The notes under the pieces: model-generated
Told to the model about the DNA's origin: nothing
Database searches by the model: none
The model's input: only the letters and a program-made list of their open reading frames with translations
Source of the DNA: an uncultured cyanobacterium
GTDB taxonomy: Bacteria > Cyanobacteriota > Cyanobacteriia > Cyanobacteriales > CAWCAG01
Length of the DNA stretch: 64,000 nucleotides
Assembly (NCBI GenBank): GCA_963803805.1
Contig: CAWDOD010000010.1
Coordinates: forward strand, 256,001-320,000
Direction of reading: 5' to 3'
Shown: one piece after another, positions 13,512 through 22,577 of the stretch
How the letters are laid out: each line of letters starts with the position of its first letter
Numbering within the stretch: the stretch's first letter is position 1
Made by a program: the position numbers and the translations under genes

Positions 13512-13621
13512 ATAAAATCTGCTTGAATAGCTACGGTGATCAAAAAGCCTATATAACATTCAGCCAAAAAATGTTTTAAACCCTTCTGCCTGCTCCCTAC
13601 TCCCTACCCTAGCAGTACAAT

Positions 13622-14077: not shown

Positions 14078-14423
14078 AGAAAGTATTTGCTAAGTAAGGA
14101 TTTTAAGATTTTGATATCATTTCTGCCATATATCATAAACAGCTTTTTTCGTCAAAAAAACTTTTTCAACCACCCTGAAAATTTGTTAAACCTAAAACTT
14201 CTATTAACTAAATTCTGCCGCCAAATACTAACTAAATTAACGGTTTATCAAGGTTATAGGGATTGAGTTTGAATTTTAGATATAAAAAGAGCAGTATGAT
14301 TTTCTTGATTTTACCATCAAACGACGCAAATACGTCTTTTTCAGAACAATTTCCCCCTTGACATTTATGAAGATGAAGTTGTGTAAATTCAGGATGTTTA
14401 ATAACAACATCCATCAAGCAAAA

Positions 14424-14456
14424 TTATTACTTATTACTTATTACTTATTACTTATC
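14424..14456. repeat. Heptamer tandem repeat (TTATTAC)n, STRR-type
   Basis: About 4.5 copies read directly. Confidence 0.8.
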
Positions 14457-14534
14457 AGACGCTGCTCCCTATCTTTTTCGGATAAATCAGGTTAAATTAA
14501 CTTGTAGCTATGTAAGTAAGGCGAAGCTCATCTT

Positions 14535-15788
14535 ATGGATGCAAATAATTTTGCTGAACTGAAGTTTTTGTTAGAGTTGGCTTCTTATTCTAACCAAGAA
14601 GCATCTCTTAGTTCTTTTTTAACAAAATCCAAGAGCAAACGAAACAAACTTGACAGTAAACAAAGGGACGAAATTTGTCAGAAGTTAAGGGAAAGGGGGA
14701 TAGTCGATTTTAGCCGTGAGATTGATACTGTTGAAATTGCCCCTCCAGGAAATGCTTTACTAAATTTAGAAGCAAAGGAATTACCAATTTCAGTTGAGGA
14801 GTTTGAAGTATTAGAAAAGATTGCTAAAAAGGGTAAGGCTAAGTTAAGCGACCTGACAACTAAAAAGTTTAAGGCGGCGGCGAGAGATAAAATTCTCCAA
14901 GTTCTTTTGGAGAAAAATTTAGTTTCGGCAGAGATGGAATTAAATATTATCACTGTAGAAATTGCTCCTCCCGGAACTGCTTTATTGGAGTTGGAAACTG
15001 AGGAATTGCCACTTTCAGAAAAGGAATTTAAAGTATTAGAGCAAGTTGCTAAAAAAGGTAATACGAAGCCAAGCAAGATTACTTTTAAGATTGACAAAAA
15101 AAGTCTCGCAGCAGCAGAAAGAGATGAGATTTTGCAAGACTTTTTGGATAAAGGTTTAGTTACCGCGGAGATAGAAAAAAATATCGCCACTGTAGAAGTT
15201 GCTCCTCCGGGAAGTGATTTACTAAACTCTCAAGGGAATAAACCACCAATTTCAGAAAAAGAGTTTAAAGTATTAGAAAAAATTGCTAAAACAGGCAAAA
15301 TAAAGCCTAGTGAAATTAAAAGTCCTAAAGCCGCAGCAAGAGATAAAATTCTGCAAGATTTCTTGGATAAGGGTTTAGTTACGGCGGAAATGAAAGTTAA
15401 GCGCCAAGGGGCAAAAGTTTGGTTAACTGACCAAGGAAAAGATTGTTTAGAGAAAGTTAATCAACATTTCTTCTCTTTGCAAGAAGTTGCAGAAAAGAGA
15501 GTAGAAGTTGAAGAGAGTAAACCTACAGATGAAGAGATTTTCCAAGCGATTAAAGATTTAGATCATAAAATGAGTTTGGATAATTATTTACCAATTTTTT
15601 ACCTGCGAGACAAGTTTCAACCGCCCCTTTCTAGGGAAGAGTTAGATCAAGCACTTTATCGCCTATCAAAAGATGACCGGATTGAGTTGGGTGCGTTGCA
15701 GGAAACGAGAGTTTATAACTCTACAGAACTGAGTGCTGGTATTCCTCAAGATATTGGTGGACCTCTGTTTTTTATCTCTGTTAGCTAA
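14535..15788 (+). CDS. rcaD: RcaD-like putative DNA-binding protein with three tandem ~75-79 aa repeats
   Basis: ELKFLL N-terminus and C-terminal NYLPIFYLR...PPLSREELDQALYRL...GIPQDIGGPLFFI recalled from cyanobacterial RcaD-family proteins; repeats start at 14727, 14952 and 15189. Confidence 0.65.
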   Translation: MDANNFAELKFLLELASYSNQEASLSSFLTKSKSKRNKLDSKQRDEICQKLRERGIVDFSREIDTVEIAPPGNALLNLEAKELPISVEEFEVLEKIAKKGKAKLSDLTTKKFKAAARDKILQVLLEKNLVSAEMELNIITVEIAPPGTALLELETEELPLSEKEFKVLEQVAKKGNTKPSKITFKIDKKSLAAAERDEILQDFLDKGLVTAEIEKNIATVEVAPPGSDLLNSQGNKPPISEKEFKVLEKIAKTGKIKPSEIKSPKAAARDKILQDFLDKGLVTAEMKVKRQGAKVWLTDQGKDCLEKVNQHFFSLQEVAEKRVEVEESKPTDEEIFQAIKDLDHKMSLDNYLPIFYLRDKFQPPLSREELDQALYRLSKDDRIELGALQETRVYNSTELSAGIPQDIGGPLFFISVS

Positions 15789-15817: not shown

Positions 15818-17869
15818 ATGACTCCTATAGATCAGCTTATTGCCCAGGAAGCTAATCCTTTTGATACCATAACTTTAACGCCCGGTAATTTTTGGAAAGA
15901 AGAACAGAAGCAAGAGTTAGTTGTTGATTCTATTCATCAAGAATTAGTTGTTGAAATAGAAAAATATCTTGATCTTGTAGCTAAGGATGGTCGTAGTCGT
16001 AGTTTACTTTTAATTGGAGATTCTGGTACAGGTAAAAGCTATTTATTAGGGCGAGTTAAGAAGTTATTTAACACTAAAGCTTTCTTTGCTTATATTGGCC
16101 CTTGGCCCGATGGTAATTATATTTGGCGACATACATTACGCTATTTAGTTGATAGTTTGATGTATGTGCCAGAAAACCAAGAGCAATCACAACTTTTACT
16201 TTGGCTCAATGGTTTGCTGCAAGGAAAAGAACAAAGTGTTGTTACTAAGTTGCTTGGGGAACGTAAACTTTTCGTCAACAACCTTAGAGCAGCTTATCCT
16301 ACTGGTATTTACAAGGCCAAAGAGTTTTTTACTGTTCTTTATAATCTTACTCAACCTGAACTATATACCCTTTGTTGTGACTGGTTAAAAGGAGATGATT
16401 TAGATGAAGAAGATAGAAAAAGAATTGGAGTTAAACGTAGTATTGATAATGAAGAAGCGGCACAAAATATTGTTGATAATTTTGGTGGAATTGCTAAGGA
16501 TACACAACCGATTGTCCTTTGCTTTGATAATTTAGATAATATCCCCCTCGCTAATAACGGTTTATTGGATTTACAACCTTTATTCAGAGTTAATTCAACT
16601 ATTCACAACCAGTATCTCAAGAACTTTCTGATCATTATTAGTTTTGTTAAAAGTACTTGGCAACTAAATAGTACATCTGTCCAATCAGCAGATAGAGTTA
16701 GAATTGCAGCTAAGTTAGCTCTCAAACCAATTAATTTAGACCAAGCAGAAGACCTTTGGCGAAACCGACTTTATCCTCTTCATCAAAAAGTCAGGTCTAA
16801 ACCTCAATCGCCTATTTTTCCTTTGAGCAAACAAGCTTTAGAACAAAAACATCCTGACAGTAAAACTAAGCCTCGTTCGGCGCTGAAGTTAGGAAAAGAA
16901 TTATATCAGGAGTATAAAAATCAACTCAAGGATAATCTGATTGTTGAGGCTAATCAAGTTACTAGTGAAAAACAACTTGGTGAGGAAAATAAAGTTAGTG
17001 AAGGCAATCAAGTTGGTAAGGATAATAACTCTAGTAATGAAAAAGAGCAATACTTAGGGGCATTTAAGCTTATTTGGCAAAAAGAGTTCAATAAAATCAA
17101 AAAACAAGTAACAAAAGTATCGCAATTCTCATCGCCAGAATTGATTAAAATGTTACAGGAAGCTTTAACTGCTTCGCGGGTTACTAATATTGAAACCAAG
17201 CTTTTAGCGGGGAAGTATAGTAGTTATTCTTTTAAATTTGCCAAAGAGAATGGTACAGAAATAGGAGTAGTTTGGAGTGAAGATGCTAACTTATCAAGCT
17301 TTTCCTTTTTAATGAAGGCTTGTAAGAAAGCTCTCAAAGATAAGCGATGCCAAAATCTCTTTTTAATTCGCGACAATAAATTGGGAAACCCTCAAAATCG
17401 AGGATACAAAGACTACAAACAGATTTTTATTGACTCCCCTCACCAACATCATAAACCTAATCAAGAGTCTGTTTGCTATCTGGCAACTTATCATAGTTTA
17501 GTTAACTCTGCTCGTTCAGGAGAATTAGTTGTGGGGGACGAAACTCCTGACTTAATAGAGTTAGAGAATTTAATTTCCCAAACCAAAGTTCTAGATAATT
17601 GTGATTTGTTGCAGAGACTTTTAGAAAAGGTTGTAGTGACAACACCGCCATCTGACAGAATCAAAGAGATTTTCTTGAACTTAATGATGAGCCAACAACT
17701 TATGGGTAAACCCACTTTGCTTGAAAATGCTAATGTTCAGTTTGCCGAAGCCAGTCCTGAGCAATTAGAAATAGCTATTAAAGAACTTTGTCAAGAACAG
17801 AAACTTAAAATTCTTGACCCCAATGCCAAGCCGGAAGCACAACTAATTTGTTGGGTTCCTCAAAAATAA
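15818..17869 (+). CDS. P-loop/AAA+ ATPase (RcaG-like) with C-terminal extension
   Basis: NPFD N-terminus, Walker A GDSGTGKS, Walker B LCFDNLD, ADRVRI; 29 bp downstream of the rcaD-like gene. Confidence 0.8.
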   Translation: MTPIDQLIAQEANPFDTITLTPGNFWKEEQKQELVVDSIHQELVVEIEKYLDLVAKDGRSRSLLLIGDSGTGKSYLLGRVKKLFNTKAFFAYIGPWPDGNYIWRHTLRYLVDSLMYVPENQEQSQLLLWLNGLLQGKEQSVVTKLLGERKLFVNNLRAAYPTGIYKAKEFFTVLYNLTQPELYTLCCDWLKGDDLDEEDRKRIGVKRSIDNEEAAQNIVDNFGGIAKDTQPIVLCFDNLDNIPLANNGLLDLQPLFRVNSTIHNQYLKNFLIIISFVKSTWQLNSTSVQSADRVRIAAKLALKPINLDQAEDLWRNRLYPLHQKVRSKPQSPIFPLSKQALEQKHPDSKTKPRSALKLGKELYQEYKNQLKDNLIVEANQVTSEKQLGEENKVSEGNQVGKDNNSSNEKEQYLGAFKLIWQKEFNKIKKQVTKVSQFSSPELIKMLQEALTASRVTNIETKLLAGKYSSYSFKFAKENGTEIGVVWSEDANLSSFSFLMKACKKALKDKRCQNLFLIRDNKLGNPQNRGYKDYKQIFIDSPHQHHKPNQESVCYLATYHSLVNSARSGELVVGDETPDLIELENLISQTKVLDNCDLLQRLLEKVVVTTPPSDRIKEIFLNLMMSQQLMGKPTLLENANVQFAEASPEQLEIAIKELCQEQKLKILDPNAKPEAQLICWVPQK

Positions 17870-17877
17870 ATAAAACA

Positions 17878-20637
17878 ATGCCTTACTTAAGCGACTCTCA
17901 AGCCATTTGGCAAACAATTAACAAACTAACCCAAGCAAAAGTCCTGTGGTTAGATACAGAAGTGGCTGATTGGCGAACCAGAAATCCTCGACTTTCTCTG
18001 ATTCAAGCTTTAGTTGATGCTAAAGATTTTACAGGAGAAACTGCTTATGTTTTAGATGTTTTGCAAACACCAGAATTAATCAACTATTTTATTAGCCAAA
18101 TTATGGCTAATCCTCAGATTGAAAAAGTTTTTCATAACGCAAGTTACGATTTAAGATTTTTAGGGGGAAACAAAGCTAAGAATATTACTTGTACTTTAAA
18201 GTTAGCTAAAAGTAATCGTCACTTATTGCCAGAAGTAACCAACTTACAACTAAAAACCTTAGCCACAGAATTATGTAACTTTCCCGTAGCCGATGTCGAA
18301 CCTCAAGGGAGTGATTGGGGAAAACGTCCTTTAACAGCGACGCAGTTAAAGTATGCTCAAATGGATGTAGTTTATTTGGCACAGTTACATAATTACTTTC
18401 TCAAACTAACTCCCATAAATGTCAGGAAAAGACCTCTTTCTTCCCTCACTGTCACCAAAGTTTGTTTAGCTTTTGAATGTCCCCGTCTTTTTTATCTCGG
18501 ACATAAATCCGGCGGAAAAACCATGTTCGTCCCTGCTAATAAAGCCCCCGGTATTGGTAAAACCTTTCATCAATTGTCTGATCGCTTCGTCAAACTAATC
18601 AAACAAGAAGCTCAATTTCAACAACTATTAATAGCTACTCCACAACAACTAAATGCCACAGAAGTAGCTCAGAAAATGCAAGAATTATTATATGAATTAG
18701 CATTCTTTCCCTATTTACAAAATGCCATTAGAGTTGATCCGGCTAAAGCACAGCCTCTGTATACAATTTGGCAAGGATTACAAAATCTCATTGCACGTTG
18801 GGCAGAATTATTAGTTAGTAACCGTGCCTTTTGCCCTGCCGAAGAAGTTGTCAGTAAAACGTTCATCTCCCAAGAACTAGACATTAGTTACAAATTTATT
18901 TTAAACAACAATGAAGAACAATTAGTTAAAGGCAGATTTGATAGTTTAGTTTATGACTTTTCCCAACATCGGCTTTGTGTTGTCGATTATAAAACCTACC
19001 ATAGCCCCGACAAATCTGCTCAATTAGCTCAAGTTGCTCTCTATGGTTATATGCTTAAAAATAGAGTGGGAGTTCCCATAAATTCAGCCGTTTATACTGT
19101 CTTACCTAGCTGGGAAGAATCAACCTTAACCTGGGAACAATTAGAAGCAACCATTCATCAACTTATTCCCGAAAAACTCAAACAAATACAACAGTGGTTA
19201 AACTGGCAACAACCTCAAACCAATCCACCACCACCTACCTCTCAACCAGAATTACTTTGTCCTCTCTGCCCGCAACAACAAAAGTGTCAAACTTTCTTCC
19301 CAAATCCTCCTTTAATTGAAGGAAAATCTACTACTGCTAATCCCATTCCTAAACCCAAATTTGCTCCTCCACAAAAATCAACTCTTCCTACTAATCTAAC
19401 TGAAGCAAAAACACCAATTACAGAATCTCAATCTACTGTAGAAGCTAATATTCCTGAAACCAAAACAACACCTCAAACTGAGCCAATTATCGCCCCACAA
19501 GTAATTCTTAAAAATGAGCCAACAACTACAGCAAAACCAGTTGAGAAAACTAACCCAAATACAGAACCTCAACCAACTATAGAAGCCGATAAAATTGGTG
19601 AACAAGTAGTAACAATTTTAAAATCATTTAAAACCGATGTTGAATACTTAGGTGCAGATATTGGACCAGCTTTTATTAGAGTTAAACTCAAACCTAACTT
19701 AGGAGTTAAAGTAAGTTCTTTATTGAAATTAGCTGATGACTTACAAGTACAACTAGGCATTAGCAACCCTCCTTTAATTGCTCCGCAAGCTGGTTATGTT
19801 AGCGTTGACTTACCCCGCTCAAAAAGAATAATTGCCCACTTCAAAACTTATATACAACCAGAAAATTCTTCCCCCACAGCCCCAGTTAAAATCGCCATTG
19901 GCATCAACTTAAACAACCAATTAATAGAAGCCAACTTAGCTGACTCCAACACTTGCCATTTCTTAGTAGGAGGAACTACAGGTAGTGGCAAAAGTGAATT
20001 TTTAAGAGCATTACTCCTCAGTCTTTTATATCGCCATCCCCCTAACCAACTAAAAATTGCTTTAGTAGATCCTAAACGAGTCACCTTTCCAGAATTTGAA
20101 AAAATGCCCTGGCTACTTTCCCCGGTAGTTAAAGATAGCGATCGCGCCATTGAATTAATGGAAACATTAGTCATAGAAATGGAACGTCGCTACCAACTTT
20201 TTGAACTCAATTCCTGCCCTAACTTAACTGCCTATAACCAACACCTAGCACAACAGCAAAAAAAACCAGAACCTCCCATCGTTTGCATCTTTGATGAATA
20301 TGCAGACTTTATGGTAGAAAAAGAAACTCGCCAAACCCTAGAACAAAGTATCAAGCGTTTAGGGGCAATGGCAAGGGCGGCTGGTATTCATTTAATCATT
20401 GCTACTCAACGCCCAGAAGCCAGGGTTGTCACCCCCATCATTCGCTCTAACTTACCTGGTAGAATTGCCCTACGTACTGCAAGCGAAGCAGATTCAGAAA
20501 TCATTTTAGGAGGCAAACAAAAAGAAGCAGCTTGTTTATTAGGCAAAGGAGATTTATTGTTTTTAAATAATAGTAAATTAGAACGATTGCAGAGTTTGTA
20601 TGCTCAAGAAATCAAGCTTAATTTAGTTAATAGTTGA
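17878..20637 (+). CDS. Fusion of DEDDy 3'-5' exonuclease, Fe-S PD-(D/E)XK nuclease and FtsK/SpoIIIE ATPase (no TM or gamma domain)
   Basis: WLDTE / FHNASYDL / YAQMD; ECPRLFY, GRFDSL, VVDYKT, QVALY, CPLCPQQQKC; GGTTGSGKS, VDPKRV, IFDEYAD, ATQRP, LLGKGDLL; ATG at 17878, 8 bp after the upstream stop. Confidence 0.88.
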   Translation: MPYLSDSQAIWQTINKLTQAKVLWLDTEVADWRTRNPRLSLIQALVDAKDFTGETAYVLDVLQTPELINYFISQIMANPQIEKVFHNASYDLRFLGGNKAKNITCTLKLAKSNRHLLPEVTNLQLKTLATELCNFPVADVEPQGSDWGKRPLTATQLKYAQMDVVYLAQLHNYFLKLTPINVRKRPLSSLTVTKVCLAFECPRLFYLGHKSGGKTMFVPANKAPGIGKTFHQLSDRFVKLIKQEAQFQQLLIATPQQLNATEVAQKMQELLYELAFFPYLQNAIRVDPAKAQPLYTIWQGLQNLIARWAELLVSNRAFCPAEEVVSKTFISQELDISYKFILNNNEEQLVKGRFDSLVYDFSQHRLCVVDYKTYHSPDKSAQLAQVALYGYMLKNRVGVPINSAVYTVLPSWEESTLTWEQLEATIHQLIPEKLKQIQQWLNWQQPQTNPPPPTSQPELLCPLCPQQQKCQTFFPNPPLIEGKSTTANPIPKPKFAPPQKSTLPTNLTEAKTPITESQSTVEANIPETKTTPQTEPIIAPQVILKNEPTTTAKPVEKTNPNTEPQPTIEADKIGEQVVTILKSFKTDVEYLGADIGPAFIRVKLKPNLGVKVSSLLKLADDLQVQLGISNPPLIAPQAGYVSVDLPRSKRIIAHFKTYIQPENSSPTAPVKIAIGINLNNQLIEANLADSNTCHFLVGGTTGSGKSEFLRALLLSLLYRHPPNQLKIALVDPKRVTFPEFEKMPWLLSPVVKDSDRAIELMETLVIEMERRYQLFELNSCPNLTAYNQHLAQQQKKPEPPIVCIFDEYADFMVEKETRQTLEQSIKRLGAMARAAGIHLIIATQRPEARVVTPIIRSNLPGRIALRTASEADSEIILGGKQKEAACLLGKGDLLFLNNSKLERLQSLYAQEIKLNLVNS

Positions 20638-21755: not shown

Positions 21756-22577
21756 GTGCAAAAAAAACTAACTATGGCGATTACGCTCCGCGTAGCAGCA
21801 AAGCTGAGCGCAACTATTTTTATCTTCCTGCAAACGGGCTGTGATTTTCTCTTAGGGTTTGATACCCCAACCAACCCTCACTTACTATTGGGTAATCCTA
21901 GCAATGCTGGATTAGAACCAAATAATTATTTAATAGAAAAGCCTCAATATGTTTTATCCTACAATCGAGAACGGGGAACAGCTAATTGGGTAGCTTGGCA
22001 GCTTAACCAAAGTTGGTTAGGTAAAGTAGAAAGACAAGATGATTTTCGTCCCGATGCCACCTTACCAGAAGATTGGTATCAAGTCAGACCAAACGACTAT
22101 AGAGGAAGCGGCTATGATCGTGGTCATCTTACCCCTTCAGCAGATCGCACAGACACTATAGAAGATAACTCAGCGACTTTTTTAATGACCAACATTGTAC
22201 CCCAAACCCCAAATAACAATCGGGGTGCATGGCGAGAGTTAGAAGAATATTGTCGAGAATTAGTAGAGGAAGGGAAAGAACTTTACATCATTGCTGGAGT
22301 TTATGGGGAAAGGGAAAAAATTGGCCCTGATAGACAAATAACCGTACCAACCTATACTTGGAAAGTTATCGTGGTTTTAGATGAACCAGGAGCAGGTTTA
22401 AATAATATCTCCGAAAATACTAGAATTATCGCTGTAGATGTGACCAATCGTGTCAATACCAGTTCAGATTGGGAAAACTATCAAGTCAGTGTCGATCAAC
22501 TAGAAGCTAAAACTGGCTACGACTTCCTTAATCGTGTTCCCGTCTCAATTCAAGATGTGATTGAAAGTAGAAGGTAG
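21756..22577 (+). CDS. Sugar-non-specific DNA/RNA endonuclease (NucA-like), probable lipoprotein
   Basis: LLLGNPS, YDRGHLTPSAD, FLMTNIVPQ, NRGAW; lipobox-like LQTGC. Confidence 0.9.
   Translation: MQKKLTMAITLRVAAKLSATIFIFLQTGCDFLLGFDTPTNPHLLLGNPSNAGLEPNNYLIEKPQYVLSYNRERGTANWVAWQLNQSWLGKVERQDDFRPDATLPEDWYQVRPNDYRGSGYDRGHLTPSADRTDTIEDNSATFLMTNIVPQTPNNNRGAWRELEEYCRELVEEGKELYIIAGVYGEREKIGPDRQITVPTYTWKVIVVLDEPGAGLNNISENTRIIAVDVTNRVNTSSDWENYQVSVDQLEAKTGYDFLNRVPVSIQDVIESRR

Follow-up and report, generated by a model that had tools for sequence, protein, structure and literature searches.

The window analysed here is a 64,000-nt stretch of contig CAWDOD010000010.1 (assembly GCA_963803805.1) from an uncultured cyanobacterium, whose genome is 97% complete. 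Three genes lie there in a row on the plus strand, encoding a multi-winged-helix DNA-binding protein that resembles RcaD, an Orc/Cdc6-fold AAA+ ATPase that resembles RcaG, and a protein in which two nuclease domains precede an FtsK-type motor (Table 1). We refer to the trio as the cassette and to its third member as the FtsK-nuclease gene. The open frame of the latter spans 17848-20637 and its ATG, at 17878, stands 9 nt past the stop codon of the rcaG-like gene. This ATG is taken as the real start because M1 is nearly invariant and Y3 invariant in an alignment of 52 full-length homologues, the same alignment on which all residue conservation given below for this protein is based. A sequence-only reading of the gene had described a fusion of a DEDDy exonuclease, a Cas4/AddB-like iron-sulphur (Fe-S) nuclease and a soluble FtsK motor, and had called it unusual.

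The N-terminal domain of the protein matches DNA_pol_A_exo1 (E 2.1e-27, 96.5 bits vs a cut-off of 23.6; all Pfam domain calls in this protein are above the curated cut-offs). Across its DTE, HNASYD and YAQMD motifs, residues D26, E28, D91 and Y159 are invariant and D163 is kept in at least 90% of the homologues. Compared with the PDB, the family profile retrieved for this N-terminus the "ancestor of diDNase" (9qrf, 5.7e-17), NanoRNase C (NrnC), RNase D and Rrp6, and Foldseek returned RNase D, Rrp6 and diDNase. DEDDy exonucleases act with 3'-5' polarity. The second domain matches PDDEXK_1 (E 2.2e-13, 51.1 bits vs 22). Results showed that its cysteines C201, C461, C464 and C470, set out as one plus three, are invariant in 52/52 homologues, together with D355 of the RFD motif, K372 of DYK and Q385 and Y389 of QxxxY; position 370 is D in the window protein and E in most homologues. 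The Foldseek matches of this part were ACE1 (9iac/9iab, TM-score 0.46-0.51 normalised to the target), AddB (4cej_B), AdnAB, Dna2 and RecE, with probability 1.00. Nucleases of the Cas4/AddB/Dna2 type cut from the 5' side, either at ends or in single strands. Both the fold and the cysteine pattern justify the label "Cas4/AddB-like Fe-S nuclease", the Fe-S cluster being predicted. CRISPR-associated Cas4 proper was considered and rejected, with 27 bits against a cut-off of 65 for the TIGR00372 equivalog and no cas genes in the cassette. The AlphaFold model used, covering residues 1-480 with a mean predicted local distance difference test (pLDDT) of 72.5, is confident at residues 225-440, poor at 110-187 and again poor from residue 445 to its end, where pLDDT stays below 50. 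A search of a phage collection of 50,697 records found no match to the nuclease half of the protein. The genome has one other PDDEXK_1 gene (G000:C2:1057814-1058509), a 264-aa frame with E 3.7e-30 that may encode a stand-alone Cas4/ACE1-like nuclease.

A linker rich in proline and threonine, whose sequence and length vary among homologues (it appears as runs of no consensus in the alignment), leads to FtsK_alpha (E 3.8e-09, 37.1 bits vs 22.9) and to FtsK_SpoIIIE (residues 667-846, E 2.3e-42, 145.3 bits vs 24). The Walker A (G698-S706) and Walker B (D806-E807) motifs and the Q844-R845 pair of ATQRP are invariant, and the family profile matches FtsK in the PDB (2iuu) at E 2.1e-64. FtsK alpha/beta motors, as established for those of E. 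coli and P. aeruginosa, are hexameric rings that pump duplex DNA. The exonuclease motifs, the cysteine set and catalytic residues of the nuclease, the linker and the intact motor had all been picked out in the sequence-only reading, and every one of them was borne out at positions that proved right within a few bases, both nucleases now being supported by profile and by fold.

Table 1. Genes of the cassette and domains of the FtsK-nuclease protein, in window coordinates
Feature	Position	Strand	Details
rcaD-like gene, multi-winged-helix DNA-binding protein	14535..15788	+	417 aa; first cassette gene
rcaG-like gene, Orc/Cdc6-fold AAA+ ATPase	15818..17869	+	683 aa; second cassette gene
FtsK-nuclease fusion gene	17878..20637	+	919 aa plus stop; third cassette gene
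DEDDy 3'-5' exonuclease domain	17890..18405	+	residues 5-176; PF01612
Cas4/AddB-like PD-(D/E)XK nuclease domain, 1+3 cysteine set	18445..19290	+	residues 190-471; PF12705
Pro/Thr-rich low-complexity linker	19300..19542	+	residues 475-555; 16 Pro and 15 Thr of 81
FtsK alpha domain	19546..19815	+	residues 557-646; PF17854
FtsK/SpoIIIE beta (RecA-like) motor, to the C-terminus	19876..20634	+	residues 667-919; PF01580

The fusion itself did not turn out to be unusual. The same four domains were present in 119 of the 120 best listed database homologues (52-89% identity), which span many genera of filamentous cyanobacteria and include complete genomes, and a scan of species-representative genomes found relatives encoded at 316 loci. 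The two-nuclease FtsK fusion is therefore common in filamentous cyanobacteria rather than rare. The sequence-only reading had also missed that the gene belongs to an rcaD-rcaG-ftsK/nuclease operon and that a class of this architecture is described in print (section 22 of PMC10853773).

We examined 80 related loci to see what is kept around the gene. The colinear trio was found in 73/80; in 74/80 an RcaG homologue encoded on the same strand ends within the 500 nt before the FtsK-nuclease gene, and a homologue of the RcaD-like protein is likewise present in 74. Among the seven exceptions to the trio, four are cut by contig ends and three, from Hormoscilla or Iningainema, are partial or lack the exonuclease. 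None of the 80 loci has the neighbours seen in the window, which are cpeS, a phycobilisome linker gene, dapB and moaE upstream and trpD, a NucA-like endonuclease gene and a DUF3038 gene downstream. In a phylum sample of 401 cyanobacterial genomes from 156 genera, an RcaG homologue accompanied the nuclease-FtsK part in 38 of the 39 genomes that carry it (the exception has only a 233-aa fragment) and occurred in 11 genomes without that part. This co-occurrence is a strong pattern, not a statistic, related genomes being non-independent.

The three proteins evolve at different rates, with mean column identities of 39% for the RcaD-like protein, the product of the fastest-evolving gene of the cassette, 52% for the RcaG-like ATPase and 62% for the FtsK-nuclease protein. 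In Tolypothrix tenuis PCC 7101 (locus L076), NCBI and UniRef name the products "transcription factor RcaD", "Orc1-like AAA ATPase domain-containing protein" and, for the third gene, "cell division FtsK/SpoIIIE" or "PD-(D/E)XK nuclease family protein"; the first two share 41% and 42% best-segment identity with the window's RcaD-like and RcaG-like proteins. A scan for promoters and terminators found sites no more numerous than in shuffled sequence. A complex prediction with full-length RcaG and nuclease residues 190-480 scored 0.03 (mark 0.32), which is uninformative either way.

Some features of the window stand apart from the cassette. Upstream of the rcaD-like gene, an intergenic perfect heptamer tandem repeat, (TTATTAC) in 4.6 copies, occupies 14424-14455, and a second array, (CCCTACT) in 3.9 copies, lies near it at 13581-13607; both are similar to the short tandem repeats known from filamentous cyanobacteria. 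The sequencing runs available are four DNA metagenome runs of one study, with no RNA run among them, and yielded only short contigs. Their very deep cover at 14234-14467 is explained by the (TTATTAC) repeat, and an 18-base motif guessed from the loose ends of metagenome contigs had no match in the window. Downstream, 1.1 kb from the cassette and past trpD, the NucA-like gene (21756-22577) encodes a 273-aa non-specific DNA/RNA endonuclease (Endonuclease_NS, E 2e-61) and is not kept beside the cassette elsewhere.

We also looked at the two partner proteins. The RcaD-like protein gives weak Pfam matches to winged helix-turn-helix (wHTH) families below their cut-offs (MarR, SarA/Rot, HTH_45, ScpB), and its alignment, compared with PDB profiles, returned only a Z-alpha-like winged helix (1sfu, E 0.0013). 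Its nearest clusters in the ESM Atlas are named "Transcription factor RcaD" (score 0.92), and in this lineage the alignment places an insertion of about 160 aa at residues 77-237 relative to orthologues of roughly 280 aa. In the RcaG-like protein, the AAA+ core spans about residues 40-385, an alpha/beta domain fills the middle (about 430-590), and a winged helix (607-681) closes the chain at its C-terminus. Pfam AAA_16 matches just above its cut-off, and the alignment found nothing below E 0.15 among PDB profiles. With its AlphaFold model (pLDDT 82.4), Foldseek placed ORC4, Cdc6 and Orc1 at the top, with E-values from 1.4e-04, and TnsC, MuB, BrxC and STAND ATPases at lower ranks. In VIA-align, Cdc6 7jgr_G scored Z 13.9, and 2qby_B and 1fnn each reached Z 12.8; for the winged helix alone, Z was 11.8 with a root-mean-square deviation of 2.1 over 71 residues. 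All 30 aligned sequences share Walker A residues G67, D68, G72 and K73 as well as D237 of Walker B. Some genomes have two or three RcaG-type ATPase genes (G014 at C84:14414-18518, and G008, G092, G328, G194, G394 and G364), some in tandem, at a distance from the FtsK-nuclease gene; they appear to be paralogous modules of the rcaD-rcaG type that have another effector or lack one.

The distribution of the cassette is patchy. The nuclease-FtsK part occurs in 39/401 genomes and 27/156 genera, all but one in the window's order, and carriage within single genera was 1/8, 0/19 and 7/9. In the genus with one carrier among eight, the trio of the carrier sits between an FKBP/phasin-like side and a ParA-like gene, and two of the four non-carrier congeners fetched share both flanks, 6.15 kb being replaced by about 1.1 kb that hold a 136-aa open reading frame (ORF) with two transmembrane segments. 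An exonuclease-less trio resides on the 329-kb conjugative plasmid pPSE7367.01 of Pseudanabaena PCC 7367, where DEAD/DEAH helicase and SWIM zinc-finger genes precede the cassette on the other strand (L121:253-3435, plasmid NC_019690.1). The GC content of the cassette is 36.6% vs 40.9% for the rest of the window. The cassette is thus an accessory one.

Two observations concern the genes next to it at other loci. A ParA/MinD-like ATPase gene (294 aa, same strand) lies just downstream of the cassette at L002:10722-11636 and at 42 other loci; it is 77-94% identical among Nostocales, stays in congeners without the cassette and has no counterpart in the window. Beside the cassette there is also a DnaB-like helicase ORF, of 1378 aa at L089:1851-5987 (G152) vs 453 aa in a congener (L090:8257-9618, G368), which suggests that the longer form carries an intein or other insertions.

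What stands behind rcaD-rcaG varies. Besides the form seen in the window, with exonuclease, nuclease and motor, we found a nuclease-motor protein of about 690 aa (in four sampled genomes and on the Pseudanabaena plasmid), a 301-aa nuclease alone and a 186-aa exonuclease alone, and in two genera the FtsK-nuclease gene is unlinked to rcaD-rcaG. Cyanobacteria also have a stand-alone exonuclease paralogue, in frames of about 304-437 aa with 50-59% identity to residues 1-180, because of which the full-length query matches as many as 103/401 genomes. In a tree of 54 exonuclease rows, 21 of 23 stand-alone copies form one supported clade (99/93), opposite the fused copies. Nested among the latter (100/99) is the 186-aa exonuclease found alone beside rcaG, a position that identifies it as a remnant. 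The exonuclease domain of the window branches deep in the tree, and its genome holds no close stand-alone copy, the best match being 28%. At two non-Nostocales loci (L019:13547-14479 and L070:15094-16014), the cassette is followed, after only 3-4.5 kb, by a gene for a stand-alone exonuclease of 307-311 aa, and an exonuclease domain is present in the motor gene of that cassette as well.

Taken together, these results make us lean, by a modest degree, towards the reading that the FtsK-nuclease protein is the effector of an ATP-driven DNA shredder directed by RcaD and RcaG and probably aimed at invading DNA. The multi-winged-helix RcaD and the Orc/Cdc6-fold RcaG would bind DNA and select or mark the target, and would then recruit or license the FtsK-type motor, acting as a likely module for target choice and loading. 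The motor, by homology a hexameric ring translocase of double-stranded DNA, would pump the duplex at the expense of ATP, and the tethered nucleases would digest the DNA as it passes, the DEDDy domain from 3' to 5' and the Fe-S Cas4/AddB-like domain on the other strand or as an endonuclease. A ring with six copies of each nuclease on flexible linkers could in this manner degrade both strands of any loaded DNA. The expected outcome is processive destruction of non-self or linear DNA, in a manner like RecBCD/AddAB or HerA-NurA, by a shredder that would have been built from an FtsK motor captured from the segregation machinery of the cell. For the oligomeric state, the Fe-S content and the polarity of the nucleases we infer from homology. 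In the cell, such a shredder would most likely serve to defend against invading DNA, plasmids and phages included.

Several lines of evidence favour the shredder: the domains with their intact catalytic motifs, the conserved operon, the co-occurrence with RcaG, the accessory character of the cassette and its modular effectors, the Orc/Cdc6 fold and winged helix of RcaG, and the fact that the protein is the sole FtsK_SpoIIIE match of its genome. A further point is its match to a class of systems, the Orc/CDC6-HerA/FtsK capture systems, which were predicted by comparative genomics (Nucleic Acids Res 2024; PMC10853773, section 22). These combine, in mobile neighbourhoods, an Orc/CDC6 ATPase, an active restriction-fold nuclease, a HerA/FtsK motor and a wHTH, and the section predicts a role against selfish elements in which the Orc/CDC6 protein brings the restriction apparatus to its place and the motor serves to intercept the element. 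A bolder form of this reading would make the cassette an immune system of a new mechanistic type, in which a hexameric FtsK pump, licensed by an ORC-like loader and a multi-winged-helix reader, would shred the invading duplex with its two nucleases, one for each polarity; RcaD and RcaG, known from textbooks as chromatic-adaptation regulators, would then be the DNA-sensing module of that system. We hold this form tentatively and judge it somewhat more apt to fail than to stand.

Other observations weigh against the shredder. The same section calls invariable an inactive restriction-fold insert that precedes the C-terminal wHTH of the Orc/CDC6 subunit, and this insert was not confirmed in the RcaG of the window: no restriction-fold match was found for the middle domain (about 430-590) in whole-model searches, which are dominated by the AAA+ core, hhalign found no similarity between RcaG and the active nuclease half, and the middle domain has no conserved D/ExK motif. 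Moreover, in RcaG the canonical Walker-B glutamate is replaced by Asn ("FDNLD") in the window and in the consensus, and because of this replacement RcaG may be a switch rather than a motor. PADLOC-DB v2.0.0, which contains no model of this system, gave no full-length match to the model set of any named system, only domain-level ones (SspH motor end, mad8, HerA, Cas4, DEDDh), none of them for the RcaG-like protein. In Nostocales the cassette holds a fixed chromosomal place, from glycosyltransferase genes (upstream in 28-30/80 loci) to the ParA-like gene (downstream at 50% identity or more in 43/80), a pattern that looks like vertical descent with loss and not like frequent transfer. Nor do the loci resemble a defence island, as flanks are mostly housekeeping (Pfam on 100 of 149 flanking ORFs, at 13 of 20 loci), with only a handful of mobile or restriction-like ORFs (Uma2, IS200, DDE_3, PDDEXK_2, HSDR_N-ParA). 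Finally, the published role of RcaD and RcaG is in phycobiliprotein gene expression (PMC2799420).

Different explanations were considered for the same data. An artefact, by a wrong join in the assembly or by a frameshift, has nothing in its favour and is refuted for practical purposes: there is one open frame, the domain order recurs in 119 of the 120 listed homologues, which come from many independent assemblies, and relatives are encoded at the 316 genome loci noted above. In addition, two junctions are spanned by short metagenome contigs that may come from the source sample, namely exonuclease/nuclease (18003-18559, with 0 differences) and linker/alpha (19303-19818). A true cell-division or chromosome-segregation FtsK would agree with most database names, homologues being called "DNA translocase FtsK" or "cell division protein FtsK", with the close match of the alpha and beta domains to solved FtsK (E 2e-64) and with the absence of a second FtsK_SpoIIIE match in the genome. 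We find this very unlikely. The protein has no membrane helix (the highest 19-residue Kyte-Doolittle mean of the whole protein is 1.03) and no FtsK_gamma domain, PF09397 matching neither the protein nor anything else in the genome, in a search that found it in 8/14 control genomes. It reaches 167.7 bits vs the 1566-bit cut-off of the NCBIfam NF007615 FtsK equivalog, and the family is absent from 362/401 sampled genomes of the phylum. Synechococcus elongatus, which is in the control set and matches PF12705, is yet not among the genomes matching PF01580, and All7666, which the literature has used as the "FtsK" of Anabaena, is plasmid-borne. An identity of All7666 with the window protein was rejected, since the plasmid copies of Nostocales match the motor only, at 35-37% identity. 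With the membrane part and gamma domain missing, a low equivalog score and a patchy distribution, the earlier conclusion that this is not the division FtsK stands, and a soluble translocase with two nucleases is the supported description.

Three further possibilities keep the protein active on DNA and give it another purpose. If the cassette served gene regulation or the nucleoid, RcaD and RcaG would tune phycobiliprotein operons during chromatic acclimation, and the FtsK-nuclease protein, made from the same transcript, would remodel or process chromosomal DNA there instead of attacking foreign DNA. This accords with the earlier work on Calothrix PCC 7601, where the RcaD protein, purified for its binding to the phycocyanin-2 (cpc2) promoter, alters red-light operons, and where RcaG is the ATPase gene directly downstream (PMC2799420, on Noubir et al. 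2002), with the pull-down of a Lyngbya RcaD homologue on a promoter fragment (PMC2799420), with the name of the L076 orthologue and with the fixed position in Nostocales. However, two active-looking nucleases and a DNA pump fit promoter control poorly, the cassette is missing from most sampled cyanobacteria, congeners included, RcaD homologues were obtained by DNA-affinity methods that also catch general DNA binders, and no paper in the literature searched contains both "RcaD" and "FtsK"; we consider this explanation improbable. We give the same small weight to housekeeping processing of double-strand breaks, in which the protein would resect ends for recombination as an analogue of RecBCD/AddAB or HerA-NurA in cyanobacteria without RecBCD. 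The nuclease fold does match AddB, AdnAB and Dna2, RecC (PF04257) has no match in the 97%-complete genome, and a motor with nucleases of two polarities would suit resection. On the contrary, close relatives lack the gene and only 39/401 genomes carry it, a dispensability that makes a core repair role unlikely, and no known resection machine has Orc/Cdc6 or multi-wHTH partners. Still less probable is that the trio is a part or a remnant of a mobile element, with an Orc/Cdc6-like initiator and an FtsK/TraB-like pump for replication, partition or transfer. Its presence on a conjugative plasmid, the ParA-like gene behind it in 43/80 loci and the description of such neighbourhoods as mobile (PMC10853773, section 22) speak for this idea. 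Nevertheless, within the window the cassette is not bordered by an integrase, a relaxase or repeats, its chromosomal site in Nostocales is fixed, intact nucleases are unnecessary for transfer, and the ParA-like gene is far better conserved than the cassette and remains where the cassette is absent.

Should the favoured reading of an RcaD/RcaG-directed shredder be right, the cassette would be an ATP-driven DNA-destruction system of a kind not yet demonstrated, uniting a DNA marker of the ORC/Cdc6 type with an FtsK ring pump and with nucleases of Cas4/AddB and DEDDy type, three elements hitherto studied apart. The 2002 result on pigment regulation by RcaD and RcaG would then be read differently, and the system could account for gene-transfer barriers in laboratory filamentous cyanobacteria. 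Whatever its role, the name "cell division protein FtsK" or "DNA translocase FtsK" misleads in these cyanobacteria, because their sole FtsK-family motor has nothing tying it to the septum.

Compared with known systems, the protein shares with the cell-division FtsK of E. coli and P. aeruginosa (PDB 2ius, 2iuu) the alpha and beta motor, Walker A and B and the Q-R sensor/finger. Division FtsK, however, has an N-terminal membrane domain and a gamma domain for KOPS and XerD, both lacking here, whereas the window protein starts with two nucleases, is encoded in an operon beside Orc/Cdc6-like and wHTH genes and is patchily distributed. ACE1, the best structural match of the PD-(D/E)XK domain, is likewise a cyanobacterial member of the Cas4 family; it differs in being 14-16% identical and a stand-alone protein that works with a prokaryotic Argonaute (pAgo), whereas the window domain shares one polypeptide with an exonuclease and a motor, with no Argonaute gene linked to it. 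AddAB, AdnAB and RecBCD also join an ATP motor to nucleases able to handle both strands of a duplex, and the nuclease fold and cysteine pattern of AddB, AdnAB and Dna2 resemble those of the window domain. Their motor, on the contrary, is a helicase of superfamily 1 (SF1) and not an FtsK ring translocase, and in the window the nucleases are fused with the motor in one polypeptide; the sequence-level relation to these machines does not extend past the nuclease domain. The archaeal HerA-NurA machine for end processing, an ATP motor coupled to a nuclease, offers a mechanistic analogy. DndH and SspH of phosphorothioate-linked restriction resemble the protein in the motor, where PADLOC SspH models match residues 508-895 at E 1.4e-65, a match to only the motor end of a 1766-position profile. 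DndH likewise joins a restriction-fold nuclease to a captured HerA/FtsK motor, but the cassette has neither the other DndH/SspH domains nor Dnd/Ssp genes.

The two upstream genes can be likened to rcaD-rcaG of Calothrix/Tolypothrix (Fremyella) sp. PCC 7601 through the names given at L076 and the ESM Atlas clusters, and the named pair of Tolypothrix tenuis PCC 7101 has the same order and orientation as in the window. The passages of the PCC 7601 literature concerned treat RcaD and RcaG as regulators of phycobiliprotein operons and mention no third gene. The trio as a whole matches the capture systems. A subset of these is described as having an extra fast-evolving protein of two to four wHTH domains, others a 3'-5' exonuclease fused to the motor, and one set of motors an FtsK alpha domain "captured" from cellular FtsK (PMC10853773, section 22). 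The window trio shares with the class the Orc/CDC6 ATPase with a C-terminal wHTH, an active-looking nuclease and an FtsK motor with alpha domain, and also the optional multi-wHTH gene and motor-fused 3'-5' exonuclease; the text of that section names two active nuclease families and mentions no Fe-S Cas4-like one. Except for the inactive insert, every listed feature of the class was confirmed in the trio. The novelty of the cassette is limited accordingly, as its architecture class is already in print as a computational prediction (PMC10853773, section 22), and the trio is a member of this class with a predicted function.

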